A DNA stretch of 64,000 nt from Candidatus Poribacteria bacterium. GTDB taxonomy: Bacteria; Poribacteria; WGA-4E; WGA-3G. Both the position numbers and the translations under genes were made by a program. The notes below the pieces were generated by a model. It was not told the DNA's origin. It saw only the letters and a program-made list of their open reading frames with translations, and made no database searches. The stretch lies in the NCBI GenBank assembly GCA_965242965.1, contig OZ251518.1, forward strand, positions 800,001-864,000, written 5' to 3'. This document shows positions 3,025-14,782 of this stretch, piece by piece. Every line of letters begins with the position of its first letter. Position 1 is the first letter of the stretch.

Positions 3025-4680
3025 ATGCTCATAATTCCTGAACTGAATAGCCTCCACTACGGAGACAATCTGAGCGTCATGCGCCAATGGAAAAGCGGCT
3101 TTGTCCAAGCGGTATACGCCGATCCGCCGTTCAACTCCAAGCGGCAATACAATCAACTTTACGAAATTGATGTGGCAAACAAAAGCACCCGTTCCGCATC
3201 ACTCAAAGCGTTTGACGATACCTGGTCCTGGGGGCCTGATGCGCAAGAGCGCGTTGAGAGACTGACTGCCGATAAAGATTCGCCTTACTATCAGGTGTTC
3301 AATGGACTTTGGACGCTTCTCGGCGGCTGCAATATGATGGCGTATCTCAGCTACATGGGTGAACGGCTGATTGAGGTGAAACGCCTCCTCACACCGACCG
3401 GCAGTGTTTATTTGCACTGCGATCAGTCTGCTAGCCATGGGCTGAGGTTCCTCATGGACGGTATCTTTGGCGCGAAAAACTTCCGCGCCGAGATTATCTG
3501 GAAGCGGCACGGCGCGCATAACGATAAACTCTACGGGACTATTCACGACACGATTCTCTATTACAGTTATGGAGATAGGACTATCCGTGACGAGGTTCTT
3601 CTCCCTTTAAGTCCTGAAAGAATCAAAACCGGATACCGTTATTCAGACGAACATGGGAAATATGCCCGCGACGGGTTAACTGCGCCTGGTGCCACCGAAG
3701 GTGAATCGGGACAGCCGTGGCGCGGCATTAGCCCTGGGTATCGCCACTGGTCTCCACCACGAACGGGGAAATATGCTGTCTACATTGAGGAGGTGTTCAT
3801 CCCGAATTACCGTAGCATTAAGGGTGTCCATGCGCGGTTAGATGCATTAGATGAGGCAGGGCTCATTTACTGGCCGCCGAACGGCGGAAAACCACAACTC
3901 AAGCGGTATCTTCTCCCGAATGCAGGGCAACCGCCGCAAAGCATCTGGGACGATATTTCGCAGGTGAAAGGGAAGGAGTCACTCGGCTATAACACGCAGA
4001 AACCGCTGGCACTCTTGGATCGGATTATCAAGGCATCGACTGAACCGGGTGACGTGGTGCTGGATCCCTTCTGTGGATGTGGCACGACTGTCGCGGCAGC
4101 GGATGCGCTTGGCAGAAAGTGGCTCGGCATTGACATTAATCCGAGTGCGTTGGATGTCATCATGACGAACCGCTTCCCCGGTCAGGATATTCCGACTTAC
4201 GGTATCCCCGAAGATTTGGCGAGTGCGAAGCGGCTTGCGCGTTCAAACCGTCGGCACTTCGAGATTTGGGCGATTCAGCGCATCCCGGGCATCGCGCCGA
4301 ACGAAAAAGGCGGCGCGGATAGGGGAATTGACGGGAGAGGCAGAACGGTAGAAACGCCAGATGAAGACTACTCCAACGTGGTCCTCGCGCAGGTGAAAAG
4401 TGGGAAGTTCTCGCTCAGTCAGTTACGTGACTTCCTTTATGTGATGCAGCGCGAAAACGCCTCGATGGGTGTCTATTTGACGCTGGAAGATGTCACCTCT
4501 AAAGAGGCACAAAACGAGGTGATGGAATTTGGCAGGGTGACTATCGGGACAGATGTCTATCCGCGGGTGCAACTCTATTCGATCTCGGCGTTTTTCCACG
4601 GCAAGCATCTGGCGATGCCGGCGATGATTAATCCGTATACCGGCAAACCGCTCACGCGCGTGTTGTCGTTCGATTTTTAA
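3025..4680 (+). CDS. Amino (N6A/N4C) DNA methyltransferase with C-terminal Mrr-like restriction endonuclease domain
   Basis: Catalytic DPPF before SAM-binding DPFCGCGTT (beta-class order); YNTQKPLALLDRII; C-terminal ADRGIDG..AQVKSG (Mrr-type D..QxK). Confidence 0.88.
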   Translation: MLIIPELNSLHYGDNLSVMRQWKSGFVQAVYADPPFNSKRQYNQLYEIDVANKSTRSASLKAFDDTWSWGPDAQERVERLTADKDSPYYQVFNGLWTLLGGCNMMAYLSYMGERLIEVKRLLTPTGSVYLHCDQSASHGLRFLMDGIFGAKNFRAEIIWKRHGAHNDKLYGTIHDTILYYSYGDRTIRDEVLLPLSPERIKTGYRYSDEHGKYARDGLTAPGATEGESGQPWRGISPGYRHWSPPRTGKYAVYIEEVFIPNYRSIKGVHARLDALDEAGLIYWPPNGGKPQLKRYLLPNAGQPPQSIWDDISQVKGKESLGYNTQKPLALLDRIIKASTEPGDVVLDPFCGCGTTVAAADALGRKWLGIDINPSALDVIMTNRFPGQDIPTYGIPEDLASAKRLARSNRRHFEIWAIQRIPGIAPNEKGGADRGIDGRGRTVETPDEDYSNVVLAQVKSGKFSLSQLRDFLYVMQRENASMGVYLTLEDVTSKEAQNEVMEFGRVTIGTDVYPRVQLYSISAFFHGKHLAMPAMINPYTGKPLTRVLSFDF

Positions 4681-9656: not shown

Positions 9657-10091
9657 ATGAGCCACAAATTAACCCGCAGTCTCCTCCCTTTCTATATGAA
9701 ACTCCCTGTCTTTTGGGCGTTCATCGTTGTGTCGCTGCTGGGGCAGTTGCTCTGGATAGCCATCGTCTCGCAAGACCCGAGGATCGATCTGCGGTGGGCG
9801 ATTTTTGGGTATGCCCTAGGCGTAATCCTCGGCTTTATGCAGGGAGAGTGGAACGCGCGGCTGTGGCAACGTTCCTATCTACAAGTTTTGAAACGGCAGT
9901 TAACCTTCTGGGAAGCGAGAGGCGCGAAAGGCTTAACATGTTATACCTGCCTCGCGCTCGGGCTGCCGATTGTGGCGAGTGTCTTTATCCGTTCGACCGA
10001 GGCGTTGGTGGGCATCCAATCCTACGTTTTCGGCTTCGTCGGCGCGATGAATGTGGCGTTGCTGTTGTGGGTGCGGCAAATTCCGAAGTAG
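9657..10091 (+). CDS. Hypothetical membrane protein (about 4 TM)
   Basis: MSHKLTRS... hydrophobic ORF; the upstream extension in the ORF track is REP-derived. Confidence 0.65.
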   Translation: MSHKLTRSLLPFYMKLPVFWAFIVVSLLGQLLWIAIVSQDPRIDLRWAIFGYALGVILGFMQGEWNARLWQRSYLQVLKRQLTFWEARGAKGLTCYTCLALGLPIVASVFIRSTEALVGIQSYVFGFVGAMNVALLLWVRQIPK

Positions 10092-10098
10092 TGGACAA

Positions 10099-11820
10099 AT
10101 GAACCTTGATAAAAACCAGCGAAAAGCCGTGAACCACCTCGCAGGCCCCGCCATCGTCGTCGCTGGGCCTGGGAGTGGGAAAACCACGGTCATCACCGAA
10201 CGTATCCTGAAACTCATCCACGCGCGCGATGTGCCGTCATCGGACATCCTCGCCATCGCCTTTAATAAGCAAGCGGTTGAAGAGATGGAGAACCGCGTCT
10301 CGGCGAGAAGTGCCGTTCCGGTTACCATCCGCACGCTGCACGCGTTTGGCAAAGATATTGTGATGGCGCACTACAAACGCGCCGGATTTGAAAGCCGCCC
10401 AGAAATTTGGGCTTCGCAGATCGACCAGGTTATTCTGGAAGAGCGGCGACAACTAGCGCGCGAAGCCGCTAATGCCAGCGTTGCTATCTATAAAATCGAA
10501 TGCAAGGCTACTGGGAAGTGTTACATCGGGCAATCGATGAACCCGAAACGCCGGAGAATTGAACACTTCAGTCACTCCTCAAACGATAGGCTTCGGCAAG
10601 CCATCCGTGCTAGGGGGACGAATAGTTTCGATTTTGAGGTGCTGGAGTGGGTTGCCGGGCGCGCTGCAAACCGCCGCGAGGCGCATTGGATTTCGGTTTA
10701 CAGAAACCGTTCCGGTGTATTCAATCGCGCCGATCCGTTGCGCGAACGATATAGCAATCAACTCATGCTGGAGATGTTCTGCCAGCATTTCGGCATCGTT
10801 TATACCGCACATCTTGATAAAGAGCCCGATTTTGAGGATCTTCGCGCCCAGTTTGACACGATAAAAGAGAAGGTAATGCTCGCCAAACGGCAGGTTGAAA
10901 CCGGGCTGTTCGACCCGAGTTCTCTCGCTGACCGGGTCGCCCGCGTCTTCGCCGAAAAATACGAGAACGTCAAAACAGAAGCGAACGCCATTGACTTTGA
11001 GGACATGCTTATCTACGCTGCGAACCTCCTTGAAACTTGCCCTGATTTACGCGAGATTTACGTGGATAAATATCCGTATGTGTTGGTGGATGAGTTTCAG
11101 GATATCGCGCCCACCGATTTCCGTATTATTTCGCTGTTATCTGAGAATCTGTTTGCAGTCGGTGACGATGACCAGGCGATTTACGGCTTCCGCGGCGGCG
11201 ATTCGACGATTATGCAAGCGTTCGCGAACCGCCGCGATGTGAAAAAATATGAAATCACGCGCAATTACCGTTCCACGTCTACCATCGTTGAGCATGCCCG
11301 GGGCTTAATTGAGAGAAACGTGCCGCGCATCAGGAAAAACCTCCGTGCCCAAAATCCGAGACAATTCCAGATAAAATCCGTGGAGACGACACCTGAAACG
11401 CTCGCCGAAGTCCTATTAGCAGAATTGGCAGTGCCGCGGGAGACAGCCATCCTTGCGCGCACCAACTACGAAGTCGGTGAAATCAAACAGATTCTCCGCC
11501 GCTCGGGCATCCAAAGCGCGCACACCGACTTGATCGAGATAACCACTATCCACAAAGCGAAAGGACGTGAATACGAGCGAGTGATTCTCGTCCAAAACAC
11601 GCTTGGGCGGTATTTCCCGCGTCGTGACGATGATATTGAAGAGGAACGGCGCGAACGGCGCGTCTTCTACGTCGCGACGACACGCGCGAAGCGAGAATTA
11701 GTTGTGCTTGGCGGGAATTACCTGTTCATATCGGAGTTTACGGATATCCGTAAAAATGTGGGATATTACCTGCGGCAGTTTGCGTATTGGCGCGCGAGGC
11801 GGAAATTGGAGAAGGGTTAG
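10099..11820 (+). CDS. UvrD/PcrA-like SF1A helicase with an inserted GIY-YIG nuclease domain
   Basis: AGPGSGKT, AFNKQA, TLHAFG, LVDEFQD, VGDDDQAIYGFRG, NYRST, TIHKAKGREY and ERRVFYVATTRAK motifs. Insert about 10480-10730: AIYKIECKATGKCYIGQS..RR..EH..E..N. Confidence 0.9.
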   Translation: MNLDKNQRKAVNHLAGPAIVVAGPGSGKTTVITERILKLIHARDVPSSDILAIAFNKQAVEEMENRVSARSAVPVTIRTLHAFGKDIVMAHYKRAGFESRPEIWASQIDQVILEERRQLAREAANASVAIYKIECKATGKCYIGQSMNPKRRRIEHFSHSSNDRLRQAIRARGTNSFDFEVLEWVAGRAANRREAHWISVYRNRSGVFNRADPLRERYSNQLMLEMFCQHFGIVYTAHLDKEPDFEDLRAQFDTIKEKVMLAKRQVETGLFDPSSLADRVARVFAEKYENVKTEANAIDFEDMLIYAANLLETCPDLREIYVDKYPYVLVDEFQDIAPTDFRIISLLSENLFAVGDDDQAIYGFRGGDSTIMQAFANRRDVKKYEITRNYRSTSTIVEHARGLIERNVPRIRKNLRAQNPRQFQIKSVETTPETLAEVLLAELAVPRETAILARTNYEVGEIKQILRRSGIQSAHTDLIEITTIHKAKGREYERVILVQNTLGRYFPRRDDDIEEERRERRVFYVATTRAKRELVVLGGNYLFISEFTDIRKNVGYYLRQFAYWRARRKLEKG

Positions 11821-11825
11821 GTTAG

Positions 11826-12150
11826 TCGCGGGGGACAGGCCCCCGCGCTACGGTAAAAATAACGCCGCCCTTTCACCGTAGGGCGAGGGCCTGTCCCTCG
11901 CCATCGTTCGCGCTACGGAAAAAACGTCTCTCCTTTCTCTTCAGGTCCTAAAGGACCTAAGAACGATGTCCGAAAAAACGGCGCGCGCGGTACCGTAGGG
12001 CGAGGGCCTGTCCCTCGCCATCGTTCATGTACGCGCACTCCAACGATCGCGGGGGACAGGCCCCCGCGCTACGGGCGAAGAAAAGCCCTACGGAAAAATC
12101 AAGACCAGGAGGTCTCTCCTACCGAACGCATCAAAATATGAAACACCCTC
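11826..12150. repeat. REP cluster ending in a MITE TIR
   Basis: Several gtagggcgagggcctgtccctcgcc and cgcgggggacaggcccccgcgctac units; tatgaaacaccctc at 12137-12150. Confidence 0.8.
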
Positions 12151-12180
12151 GGTTAAGTATCACACGCTGCGAAAAAAGAT

Positions 12181-12209
12181 TTGACATTTTGGCAATTTTG
12201 TGGTATACT
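12181..12209 (+). promoter_or_regulatory. Sigma70-type promoter TTGACA-17-TATACT
   Basis: Near-consensus hexamers upstream of the ATPase operon. Confidence 0.7.
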
Positions 12210-12360
12210 ATATATTATTGAGAATCAGAGAGTAACGCGCAGTTTTTGCTCGCGTCCAAACCCGTAACTTGATGATGGAGATAGTCAATTTGTAGACAGG
12301 ATGTTTTTCCTGACATTCGGTGCTGCAACTCCGGAGAGTTCATTCGCAGGAGATAAAACG

Positions 12361-13671
12361 ATGAAGATTACGCAATTTACAATGGAAGAGGTCCGCTGTT
12401 TTAGCGAACGCCAGACGCTGGAAATTCGGCCCCTCACGTTCCTAGTCGGCGAGAACAGCACCGGCAAGACGACAGCACTCGCGTGTTTCCACGTGTTGGC
12501 AAACTATTTGCGGCGTGAGGGAGTGGATTTTAATTCGCATCCCTATTCGATGGGCACCTTCAAGGACATCGTCAGGAACAGCCGGAAAAAAGAGAAGGCG
12601 TTTAAGTTGGGTATTGCTTATGAACATGCCAACGAAACTGTTGAGTGGACAGTCGAATTTGTCCAAAAAAATGAACGCATTGAACCTGTAGTGAATTCAA
12701 TCGCGATAAAATTCACTGATGGCGAAATCGTTTTTGAAATCGAAGATAAGCACGAAATGCATTCGTGTTTGACTACCTTTGATGAAAAACGAAATCAGTA
12801 CCGAATAGTTTGTAGCCCTGATTTTTCCACACTGCTGGGATTGGGTGTCTTTTTACGTTTTTTAGAAGCACCCGCTGAGGGTAAAATTGCCCTAGAAAAG
12901 TATTTGGCAGCGCGTGAAGGGGCTACAAGCACCCTATACGGGCCGTGGACAATTTGGGAACCCCTCGGTGTATTTAGCACCGCCCCGATTCGCTCTAAAC
13001 CCGAACGCACCTATGATCCGACACGCGAATTCAGCAATCCCGGAGGTAGCGATGTTCCGATGCAGTTGATGCGAATAGCAGCAACTGAAAAAGACGATTG
13101 GCCGGTACTGAAAGAGTTGTTAGTCGAATTTGGCAAGATTTCTGGCTTGTTTCAGAACATAGAGGTAAAGAATCTTGGAGGTTCCTTGGCTAACCCGTTC
13201 CAATTGAAATTCAAAGTCAGGGGCCCTAACGCAAATCTCATTGATGTCGGCTACGGTGTCAGTCAAATTTTGCCGGTTTTGGTGCATATTTTAAATCCTG
13301 AGGTGCTAAGTAGAGTTCGTCCCATTTATAGCACCTACCCGTTTTTCTTGTTACAGCAACCCGAAGTCCACTTGCATCCCCGAGCGCAGGCGGAGTTCAC
13401 CTCGTTACTCGTTCAGTTGGCAAGCACGAGTAACCGGTCGTTCATCATTGAGACGCACAGCGACTATATGATCGATCGGGCGCGCATCGACATCCGAAAG
13501 GGGCACATTCGGCACGAAGACGTGTCCCTCATCTATTTTGAACCGAAACGGAATACCGTCAAGGTGCATAACATCAGTTTTGATGAGATGGGCAACCTAG
13601 TCGGTGTCCCAGCGCATTATCGGGATTTTTTCCTGAAAGAGAGCGACCGGCTCATGGGTTTTGAGGATTAA
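12361..13671 (+). CDS. ABC-type (AAA_15/AAA_21, DUF3696-like) ATPase of the defence-associated class
   Basis: Walker A GENSTGKT, signature DVGYGVSQILP, Walker B/D-loop LLQQPEVHLHP, H-loop IIETHSD; AGGAG RBS. Confidence 0.88.
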   Translation: MKITQFTMEEVRCFSERQTLEIRPLTFLVGENSTGKTTALACFHVLANYLRREGVDFNSHPYSMGTFKDIVRNSRKKEKAFKLGIAYEHANETVEWTVEFVQKNERIEPVVNSIAIKFTDGEIVFEIEDKHEMHSCLTTFDEKRNQYRIVCSPDFSTLLGLGVFLRFLEAPAEGKIALEKYLAAREGATSTLYGPWTIWEPLGVFSTAPIRSKPERTYDPTREFSNPGGSDVPMQLMRIAATEKDDWPVLKELLVEFGKISGLFQNIEVKNLGGSLANPFQLKFKVRGPNANLIDVGYGVSQILPVLVHILNPEVLSRVRPIYSTYPFFLLQQPEVHLHPRAQAEFTSLLVQLASTSNRSFIIETHSDYMIDRARIDIRKGHIRHEDVSLIYFEPKRNTVKVHNISFDEMGNLVGVPAHYRDFFLKESDRLMGFED

Positions 13672-13674
13672 ACG

Positions 13675-14040
13675 ATGGACATTATTTTAGATGCCGACAC
13701 TTTTCAGCAATTCATGGATGCGGACAACGCTGAGATGAAGTTGATTATGCGGAAGTGGTTATTTAAACGGAACGGCAAGATCGCTTATTATCCTACGGGG
13801 AAATTGGAACCGGGGAGAAAAAGAGGCGGTCCGGAAGATCTGTGGATGAAGGAGCAAATCCGGGCGGGTAGAGTCCGACAAGCCACACGTGATGAGGTGG
13901 AAAAGGCAGAGAAGGAGGCTTGGGAGGCAACGCGCGAATTGGAAAACTCGCCGGAAATCGTGGCGAGTTTAGCTCGGGCAGAGGCAGATATCAAAGCGGG
14001 GCGGCTCAAGAGCTGGAACGATGTTAAACGCGACGTTTGA
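13675..14040 (+). CDS. Chimeric protein: truncated PIN-like N-terminus plus Phd/YefM-like antitoxin C-terminal helix
   Basis: N-terminal MDIILDADTF resembles the first strand of a PIN domain. C-terminal EAWEATRELENSPEIVASLARAEADIKAGR resembles type II antitoxin toxin-binding tails. Overlaps the relE-like gene. Confidence 0.55.
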   Translation: MDIILDADTFQQFMDADNAEMKLIMRKWLFKRNGKIAYYPTGKLEPGRKRGGPEDLWMKEQIRAGRVRQATRDEVEKAEKEAWEATRELENSPEIVASLARAEADIKAGRLKSWNDVKRDV

Positions 14041-14293
14041 AATTCAACTCACGAACGAAGCCGGCACCCATTACGACAGGCTAGATGACAAGATGAAGCG
14101 GCGCGTCAACAAAGCGTTTGATATGTTAATGGAGGATCCTTTTTTCGGAAATAATATCAAGAAGCTTAAGGGAAAGCATACGGGACAATACCGTTACCGT
14201 GTCGGTAGTTATCGGATTATTTATAGCATAGACACCGAACGGCGTAAGTGCACTGTCAGCGGCATCCATCGGCGTAAAAGGGCATACCGCTAG
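14021..14293 (+). CDS. RelE/ParE family type II toxin
   Basis: 90-aa basic protein: L.EDPF..NIKKLKG...YRYRVGSYRIIYSID...V.GIHRRKRAYR. Confidence 0.9.
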   Translation: MLNATFEIQLTNEAGTHYDRLDDKMKRRVNKAFDMLMEDPFFGNNIKKLKGKHTGQYRYRVGSYRIIYSIDTERRKCTVSGIHRRKRAYR

Positions 14294-14312
14294 GTGCAAC
14301 ATGTTTCTCGTT

Positions 14313-14478
14313 GGCATGTCTGCGGAAGATTTTCCGTTTTTTGGGAATTTCCAGAGAAAAAACTTTGACATGTATCCACATTTAGTGTATAATTAACATC
14401 AACATCATTCGGTTTCCGGTCGCCCCAACACGCGGTTCAAAAGGGGTTTGCACACCTGTCGCATCCCCAACCGATTGA
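14313..14478 (+). promoter_or_regulatory. Promoter (TTGACA 14365, TATAAT 14388) plus conserved putative leader RNA, copy A
   Basis: Perfect consensus with 17-nt spacer; homologous to 15269-15410. Confidence 0.75.
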
Positions 14479-14494
14479 AGAGGAGGTGCATGTT

Positions 14495-14782
14495 GTGAGA
14501 TTATCAGAAGACAAACAGGTCGTCGGGGCTCTCAATCAAATTCTGGAGGAGTATCCTTATCTAGAATATGATGAACAGCGGCCTCAACGCGATAGCAGTT
14601 TTGGCGGCCTCCATATTAAGGTCCGTCCAAAAGCGGAACGTAATGTTCAGGTTATCTGGGACATTCGTGAAAAATTAAAGCGCGCCACTCACCGGGACTA
14701 TTTTTTCACCTACGGCGGCAGCTATTCGGGCGCGGATAATCTTGATGCGGCCTGGACATATTTCACCTTGCGGGAATTCTAG
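14495..14782 (+). CDS. Hypothetical protein (about 95 aa)
   Basis: AGGAGG at 14481 followed by GTG at 14495, downstream of a consensus promoter; no family recognised. Confidence 0.6.
   Translation: MRLSEDKQVVGALNQILEEYPYLEYDEQRPQRDSSFGGLHIKVRPKAERNVQVIWDIREKLKRATHRDYFFTYGGSYSGADNLDAAWTYFTLREF

Follow-up and report, generated by a model that had tools for sequence, protein, structure and literature searches.

A three-gene operon of a Candidatus Poribacteria bacterium contains a protein that appears to have been assembled from parts of two others. The operon lies in a stretch of 64,000 nucleotides (assembly GCA_965242965.1, contig OZ251518.1, positions 800,001 to 864,000), which we call the window and whose numbering is used for all coordinates below. 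It encodes, on the forward strand, an ATP-binding cassette (ABC) ATPase, a protein of 121 amino acids read from the second open reading frame, ORF2, and a toxin of the RelE type. Judged by its sequence, ORF2 is a true, derived chimera with a single junction: its beginning is that of a PIN-like protein, the partner of the ATPase, and its end is the tail of an antitoxin. It is plausible, if a little short of probable, that the locus records an effector swap, in which RelE, held by the antitoxin tail, took over from a PIN nuclease the role of output in a module gated by the ATPase; the comparisons of genes and the predicted structures that follow are what this reading draws on.

Many defence systems combine an ABC ATPase with a swappable effector, and what is said about the way they acquire new effectors comes mostly by inference from catalogues of domains. 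In this case, both parents persist in sister genomes, one as a two-gene ATPase-PIN module and the other as a stand-alone antitoxin-RelE cassette, and the product has one clean junction and is kept under selection. The locus may illustrate a route by which defence systems under ATPase control come to recruit toxin-antitoxin genes.

The evidence for the chimera comes from searches in which its two halves behave as different proteins. When ORF2 is compared with a library of 1.84 billion representative sequences (E <= 1e-3), there are 32 matches: 14 cover only residues 1 to about 100 and are mostly proteins of about 140 amino acids; 15 cover only residues 58 to 121, approximately, and are proteins of 49-92 amino acids together with TPR proteins of 223 and 285 amino acids; a single one, the cluster of ORF2 itself, is full-length; and the last two are odd, repetitive matches. 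A word-based search yields 29 proteins of 76-94 amino acids that match the last 35-51% of ORF2 at 60-81% identity, and 12 full-length clusters at 72-96% identity, which, together with the genome of a sister species (G066; the genome of the window is G000), establish that the fusion is not unique. Alignment places the junction between residues 79 and 80 (...EVEKAE/KEAWEAT...): the switch that the original prediction had located after about 75 amino acids is real, as the matches restricted to one half or the other also attest. At the junction both parents read (E/D)KE, that is, EKE or DKE, a possible microhomology for recombination. The junction is not an assembly artefact, because it recurs in G066, and because contigs of 425-525 nucleotides from four runs of two studies, one of which runs may be the source sample, bridge positions 13832 to at least 14256, including the junction and both gene boundaries.

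The ORF2 gene (13675..14040, + strand) starts after a 3-nucleotide gap behind the ATPase gene and has a GAGGA Shine-Dalgarno sequence. Residues 1-79 (13675..13911, +) correspond to the N-terminal half of the PIN-fold partner, whose catalytic C-terminal half is gone, and residues 80-121 with the stop codon (13912..14040, +), KEAWEAT...AGRLKSWNDVKRDV, correspond to the presumed toxin-binding module of a family of antitoxins of 76 amino acids. In the predicted fold, the first 79 residues run as strand, two helices, strand, helix, strand, helix; the model of the whole protein, with a pLDDT (predicted local distance difference test) of 69.8 and a predicted template modelling score (pTM) of 0.51, has strands at 2-6, 36-39 and 67-70 with helices, and long helices at 72-90 and 93-107. 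ORF2 has no match in Pfam, NCBIfam or PADLOC at E <= 1, in keeping with the earlier statement that it carries no recognisable DNA-binding domain. An internal start at Met58, which would give a short antitoxin, was considered and rejected: residue 58 is Ile in two of 13 chimeras.

The N-terminal parent belongs to a family of PIN-like proteins of about 140 amino acids, found by a family profile in 105 of 176 Poribacteria species genomes, usually as a single copy. In all 15 loci read, from as many genomes, the PIN-like gene (138-161 amino acids) directly follows an ortholog of the window ATPase (58-69% identity), the two genes being separated by 3 nucleotides or overlapping by 4; none of the 15 two-gene loci examined has a homolog of the toxin. 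Their flanking genes vary among genera, and no DUF262/ParB protein (NsnA) is present among the 62 nearest neighbour proteins of these loci, drawn from 109 open reading frames of at least 70 amino acids within about 3.3 kb.

The model of the full-length partner (pLDDT 88.5, pTM 0.82) has VapC PIN domains as its top rows in VIA-align, with Z from 8.7 to 6.9 and 110-119 aligned residues; the best of them (Z 8.7) aligns 117 residues at a root-mean-square deviation of 3.1. Foldseek gives no match at E <= 0.001, the best standing at 0.022, and its top rows are nearly all PIN domains. The Pfam PIN model scores 12.8-21.1 bits in six of six family members, below its cut-off of 23.6. The description of the start of ORF2 as PIN-like is supported by the fold, given the VapC matches, and not by Pfam, where no score passes the cut-off. 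Against PADLOC, the six PIN-like proteins give no useful match, only a weak N-terminal match to PDC-M11A in two of them.

Within the family, residues C2, D6, D87, D106, D112, H128 and C137 are invariant, and E46 and W47 nearly so. The family appears to keep a D-E-D-D-like acidic set, with a placement in the active site that is read from the alignment, not from coordinates; because the acidic residues are invariant or near-invariant, it has the look of a working nuclease, in contrast to the PIN-like domains of the Menshen system, which are inactive. Cys2, His128 and a C-terminal Cys-Pro are invariant in the full-length members, and Cys2 is lost in every one of the chimeras, which have no PIN C-terminus; this suggests that Cys2 and the C-terminus are structurally linked by a metal or a disulfide. 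In four runs (X1, X2, X3 and X5), other contigs track the window as far as codon 6 of ORF2 (position 13692) and then diverge; what follows translates as TNTFHRFRDP, similar to the full-length members of the PIN-like family. These samples probably also contain relatives whose two-gene module is intact.

The C-terminal parent is an antitoxin of 76 amino acids, made of an N-terminal LIEQLP...DYLxYL helix and the 42-residue tail that ORF2 retains; residues 80-121 of ORF2 are 70-81% identical to the tails of the stand-alone antitoxins. In 16 of 28 loci, the antitoxin module is directly followed by a homolog of the window toxin (50-67% identity), which is intact in one piece in 11 of them, in two pieces in three and partial in two. 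In the loci that were read, the antitoxin and toxin genes overlap by about 17-20 nucleotides, like those of the window operon. By these comparisons, the tail of ORF2 appears to be the toxin-binding region of a cognate antitoxin, encoded upstream of its toxin.

The toxin gene of the window (14021..14293, +, 90 amino acids) overlaps that of ORF2 by 20 nucleotides and encodes a RelE-type member of the RelE/ParE superfamily: it scores 33.2 bits against PF05016, for a cut-off of 23, and its best matches in PDB are RelE 9g12, the archaeal RelE 1wmi and YoeB. It retains all 30 residues that are invariant among 13 homologs, and has no useful match in PADLOC. The antitoxin family is harder to name: two stand-alone proteins have no Pfam match at E <= 1, the family has no match in PDB, and the leads given by Atlas, to DUF2281/PaaA2, are weak, with scores of 0.76-0.83, below the 0.9 level. 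The tail had been called Phd/YefM-like; with no Pfam match for it in ORF2 or in the two antitoxins, and with Atlas pointing to DUF2281/PaaA2, that label is probably wrong.

The same tail is found on yet another kind of protein. In five of the 28 loci it ends TPR-repeat proteins of 223-420 amino acids (L008, 874-1638; L012, 835-1692; L021, 802-1692; L026, 1024-1695; L029, 430-1692), which are followed by an intact RelE homolog in L012, L021 and L029, by a partial one in L026, and by no toxin match in L008. The N-terminal boundary of the tail in the L008 fusion is that seen in ORF2. Because the same tail ends these TPR-repeat proteins, it behaves as a portable module, and the TPR-antitoxin proteins would be a second kind of fusion tethering the toxin to another protein.

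Read together, these alignments indicate that the PIN gene received an antitoxin-RelE cassette by in-frame recombination, an event that dates to the ancestor of a single genus. The recombination removed the catalytic half of the PIN domain, with D87, D106 and D112, and left the N-terminal half, which is predicted to dock on the ATPase, and the 42-residue tail, followed by the RelE gene. In the search of the phylum, the full-length chimera is present only in G000 and G066, which belong to the same genus; a third genome from this genus, at 86% completeness, and three from neighbouring genera have neither the chimera nor the ATPase, and G070 has the intact pair. A scan of genome contigs with the chimera alignment, using two peptide patterns only, returns five loci, all in metagenome-assembled genomes of Poribacteria, which contain the antitoxin tail only, none being full-length; scans of metagenomes with the N-terminal half and with the chimera alignment return no further chimera loci.

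The alignment of chimeras contains 13 sequences (the window, G066 and 11 clusters, P0005 being omitted as identical to G066), all of which share one common junction and an open frame. Conservation is highest in the tail, with a mean of 0.91 and 26 of 42 positions invariant, compared to 29 of 79 in the N-terminal half. In four of the 13, D6 has become Ala; C2 is replaced by Asp or Lys, and nothing is left of the E46-W47 motif. These losses fit a protein that no longer acts as a nuclease, and the 29 positions that stay invariant in the N-terminal half point to a fold that was kept.

Ratios of nonsynonymous to synonymous substitutions (dN/dS), estimated by the Nei-Gojobori method between G000 and G066 (dS 0.42-0.52), are 0.27 for the ATPase, 0.23 for the whole of ORF2 and 0.36 for the toxin; within ORF2 they are 0.16 for residues 1-44, 0.65 for residues 45-62 and 0.14 for residues 80-115, these values coming from one species pair and from sub-regions of 36-44 codons. 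They indicate purifying selection on all three genes. In 22 pairs with intact modules, the ratio is 0.08-0.33 for the ATPase and 0.11-0.73 for the first 78 codons of the partner; because the 0.27 of the chimera lineage falls inside the range of the intact ATPases, this lineage appears to be free of relaxed selection.

The original prediction had left room for a chance recombination scar, that is, a neutral fusion without function and heading to decay. Truncated PIN remnants without replacement do exist: in G103 (L053, 3935-4141), for example, the PIN-like gene ends after residue 54 beside an intact ATPase. However, the 13 sequences, diverged to 75-96% identity with the window protein, keep an identical junction and open frames, and ORF2 shows a dN/dS of 0.23 at a dS of about 0.45-0.5; moreover, because the toxin is intact, the loss of the antitoxin tail would be lethal instead of neutral. 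With a conserved chimera and three genes under purifying selection, a decaying scar is very improbable.

We now turn to the ATPase. Its gene (12361..13671, +) encodes a NsnB-like protein of 436 amino acids. The start at ATG 12361 is the one shared with the orthologs, all 16 of which begin M(S/N/K)ITQFTMEE in the alignment; a candidate at ATG 12301 was rejected, since it lies upstream of the aligned start and is missing in G066. In Pfam the protein matches AAA_15 (1e-21) and AAA_21 (2e-16), and DUF3696 is not reported at E <= 1. In PADLOC the best match is NsnB (3.2e-44), extending to position 343 of the 345 positions of the model, then PDC-M55A, HEC-03B (6.2e-25) and AriA (2e-24), with PtuA at 1e-10. 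The motifs are a Walker A, GENSTGKTT, an atypical Walker B, LLQQPE, and an H-loop, ETHSDY; in the ortholog alignment every family-invariant residue is kept and all motifs are intact. The acidic pair of Walker B is Gln-Gln in 17 of 17 orthologs (residues 332-335, window 13354-13365): where OLD nucleases read EEPE and PtuA reads DQIE, these proteins read QQPE. The ATPase may be a nucleotide-binding switch, not a fast hydrolase. In Septu, ATP has been reported as an inhibitory ligand.

If ORF2 descends from a partner of the ATPase, does it still bind it? A predicted complex of two ATPase copies with ORF2 scores 0.70 (0.67, 0.70 and 0.71 in the separate runs), and the best of three controls scores 0.02; the mark used for this score is reached by 116 of 157 solved complexes and by two of 215 mismatched pairs, a calibration that is rough here, with custom alignments and two copies of the ATPase. 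The runs agree on at least 78% of the contacts, with a pLDDT of the partner of at least 59. The confident contacts link residues 368-434 of both ATPase copies to residues 7-71 of ORF2 only, mainly 53-71, and leave residues 72-121 free. The prediction supports the docking of the N-terminal half, not of the antitoxin tail, on the C-terminus of the ATPase, and agrees with the proposal, already made from the DNA, that the ATPase binds this half of the chimera.

There is also the possibility that one transcript serves two separate functions, the ATPase acting alone or with another partner encoded elsewhere in the genome, and ORF2 being an antitoxin whose N-terminal half binds nothing. The moderate confidence of the ORF2 models is compatible with it; so is the nature of a complex prediction, which is not a measurement and which was obtained here with an alignment that included full-length PIN partners. 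Yet G000 has no second PIN-like partner, ORF2 and the family profile each giving one match in the genome, its own; the N-terminal half has a dN/dS of 0.16 in residues 1-44 and 29 invariant positions; and the 3-nucleotide coupling to the ATPase gene is kept. We consider such a division of labour unlikely.

Assuming that the effector swap took place, ORF2 would act as a bridge: its N-terminal half would sit on the C-terminal domains of the ATPase dimer, and its free tail would hold and inhibit RelE, so that RelE, and not the lost PIN nuclease, would now be the output. As in the proposals for PARIS, Septu and Menshen, a change in the state of the ATPase, due to its nucleotide or to a trigger from a phage, would release or destabilise the adaptor, and the freed RelE would stop translation, leading to abortive infection. 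One may tentatively go further, and see in the locus a natural halfway form, with toxin-antitoxin pairs on one side and effectors of the Menshen type on the other: an ATPase-gated antitoxin, in which the state of the ATPase decides the release of the toxin. This extension is possible, and we would not call it likely.

The main rival of the effector swap is an explanation by addiction only. In this alternative, the antitoxin-RelE cassette broke the PIN gene and parasitises the operon through the promoter of the ATPase and through translational coupling. The N-terminal PIN half would be a mere scaffold, maybe stabilised by docking on the ATPase in the manner of toxin-antitoxin-chaperone (TAC) systems, in which a SecB chaperone stabilises the antitoxin; there would be no sensing and no immune role, and the ATPase and the N-terminal half would be kept because their loss frees the toxin. 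Purifying selection on both could then reflect addiction, not immunity.

Several observations favour this explanation, or otherwise weigh against the effector swap. The most constrained part of ORF2 is the toxin-binding tail, at 0.91, and a plain antitoxin would show the same; the residues of the predicted interface have no special conservation, being no more conserved than the rest of the N-terminal half (0.77 vs 0.75; permutation p 0.36); and the catalytic residues of the PIN domain have decayed. The two-gene parent module is dispensable and often broken: in G103, G053, G150, G121, G098 and G026 the PIN-like gene is cut short, split or broken up by stops without any replacement, and the ATPase is often intact. 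The N-terminal domains of the antitoxins are freely swapped in the phylum, and G000 has no second copy of the antitoxin module as a backup. The model of ORF2 is only moderate, and half a PIN domain may not fold alone. Because the canonical Asp-Glu of Walker B is Gln-Gln in 17 of 17 orthologs, ATP hydrolysis by the ATPase is uncertain. Lastly, the gene context of the chimera is read in two of the 13 sequences, G000 and G066, which are also the single pair behind the estimates of selection.

On the other side, the dN/dS of the ATPase does not rise above the range of the intact modules and all its motifs are kept, which an addiction based on transcription alone would not need; the specific docking predicted for the N-terminal half suggests more than an inert tag; and known relatives control a RelE-fold effector through the same contact between ATPase and PIN-like domain, as described for Menshen (PMC12065111). 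Addiction alone is a serious possibility that we still place below the probable.

Both outcomes are of interest. If ORF2 is a bridge, a mere fusion of the antitoxin's tail to the docking element of an ATPase sensor can connect a toxin-antitoxin pair to that sensor, and the locus offers a small three-protein system for a direct test of the control of an antitoxin by an ATPase. If addiction is all there is, it is still a clear case of a toxin-antitoxin cassette locking a host operon in place.

The three genes stand behind one strong promoter, and the layout first described for them holds in every respect, including the 3-nucleotide gap and the 20-nucleotide overlap. The promoter (12181..12209, +) is of the sigma-70 type, TTGACA-17-TATACT with a TG extension, and agrees with the consensus at 11 of 12 positions; it is nearly base-for-base the same in G066. 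It is one of seven promoter-like sites in 11700-14600, for 3.1 +/- 1.8 in shuffled sequences. A 5' leader of about 150 nucleotides (12210..12360, +) ends with the Shine-Dalgarno sequence GGAGA. Over about 100 nucleotides of it (roughly 12262-12352), G000 and G066 are about 90% identical, which exceeds their identity at coding synonymous sites (dS about 0.5). The 15 two-gene loci outside the genus do not share this conserved leader, and no Rfam family covers it: the sole Rfam match, to MIR5084, is on the opposite strand upstream and, at 29 bits for a cut-off of 110, is a chance match. The non-coding segment 12262-12352 is possibly a regulatory element specific to the genus. Downstream of the toxin gene, a terminator-like hairpin (14322-14337) is followed by a T-run (14322..14345 in all, +).

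G000 and G066 share a synteny of five genes: UvrD-GIY-YIG, ATPase, chimera, toxin and orf98. The first (10051-11820, +), directly upstream of the operon, encodes a UvrD-type helicase of 589 amino acids that contains, as an insert at residues 145-219, a nuclease domain of the GIY-YIG type. This helicase was considered as a conserved partner of the system and rejected, with tblastn matches in none of the 15 two-gene loci. The last, orf98, has 98 amino acids and no Pfam family, and follows a perfect TTGACA-17-TATAAT promoter (14365-14782, +, for both); its counterpart in G066 is 81% identical, and with a dN/dS of 0.28 the gene is subject to purifying selection. In the gap that separates the helicase gene from the operon's promoter lie two copies (11878-11902 and 11995-12019) of a palindromic element of 25 nucleotides, with core GCGAGGGCCTGTCCCTCGC, of which the 64 kb contain 40 copies at up to three mismatches, where none is expected; these dispersed palindromes look like repetitive extragenic palindromic (REP) elements and are seemingly mostly intergenic. 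About 8 kb from the operon, a single protein (3025-4680, +) carries both an N6/N4 DNA methylase domain (1.2e-41) and, at its C-terminus, a restriction endonuclease domain of the Mrr type, which suggests a single-chain restriction-modification enzyme.

How does the operon compare with known systems? The original prediction did not recognise it as a named system: the locus is indeed not a member of Menshen, HEC-03, PARIS, Septu or TAC, but its architecture has precedents in the closest known systems, Menshen, also called PtuXYZ, and HEC-03. In Menshen, an ABC ATPase, NsnB, acts with NsnC, in which an inactive PIN-like domain and an effector are fused (PMC12065111, PMC11980606); nine of 15 families of NsnC effectors are RelE-fold RNases, and AlphaFold 3 models place the PIN-like domain asymmetrically on the C-terminal DUF3696 domains of NsnB (PMC12065111). 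The resemblance is clear: NsnB is the best PADLOC match of the window ATPase, a dead PIN-like beginning is predicted to sit on the C-terminus of the ATPase, and the toxin is a RelE-fold (BECR) RNase. The differences are as clear: no NsnA/DUF262 protein is found here or in the 15 related loci, and a UvrD helicase gene lies upstream instead; ORF2 has half a PIN domain, from a family that looks catalytically active and has no PADLOC match to NsnC; and the RNase has a gene of its own and would be held by way of an antitoxin peptide, not fused as in NsnC. If the bridge is real, it suggests where the inactive PIN-like adaptors of Menshen came from; and if the antitoxin is gated by the ATPase, the dead adaptors of NsnC would come from once-active PIN effectors, reduced to docking after the capture of a new toxin.

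HEC-03 consists of an ABC ATPase and a VapC-like PIN protein, both needed for defence (bioRxiv 10.1101/2024.01.29.577857). The two-gene parent module of Poribacteria has the same architecture, and the window ATPase matches HEC-03B; however, the PIN partner has no match to the HEC-03 models and the ATPase is nearer to NsnB, and in the window the PIN domain is truncated and a toxin-antitoxin pair is added. With PARIS (AriA/AriB) and Septu (PtuA/PtuB) the locus shares an OLD-type ABC ATPase gating a small effector, matches to AriA and PtuA, and a Walker B that aligns with that of PtuA; their effectors, Toprim and HNH, are bound directly, with no antitoxin-like intermediary, and neither ORF2 nor the toxin has a match to AriB (DUF4435 Toprim) or PtuB (HNH) in PADLOC or Pfam.

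Like the type II systems of the RelE family, the locus has an antitoxin gene upstream of the toxin gene and overlapping it, and a short helical tail as presumed neutraliser; unlike them, it has a fragment of PIN as the N-terminal domain of the antitoxin, with no recognisable DNA-binding domain, the stand-alone antitoxin of 76 amino acids also lacking any domain match. Tripartite forms of these systems include TAC, with its SecB-like chaperone, and PaaR2-PaaA2-ParE2; here too a third protein may control the antitoxin, as the original prediction suggested with reference to TAC, but an ABC ATPase stands in the place of the SecB chaperone or the repressor. In the literature searched, we found no description of an antitoxin-PIN chimera on an ABC ATPase. 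What is unusual about the operon is its form of attachment: the toxin would be joined to half a PIN domain non-covalently, by way of an antitoxin.

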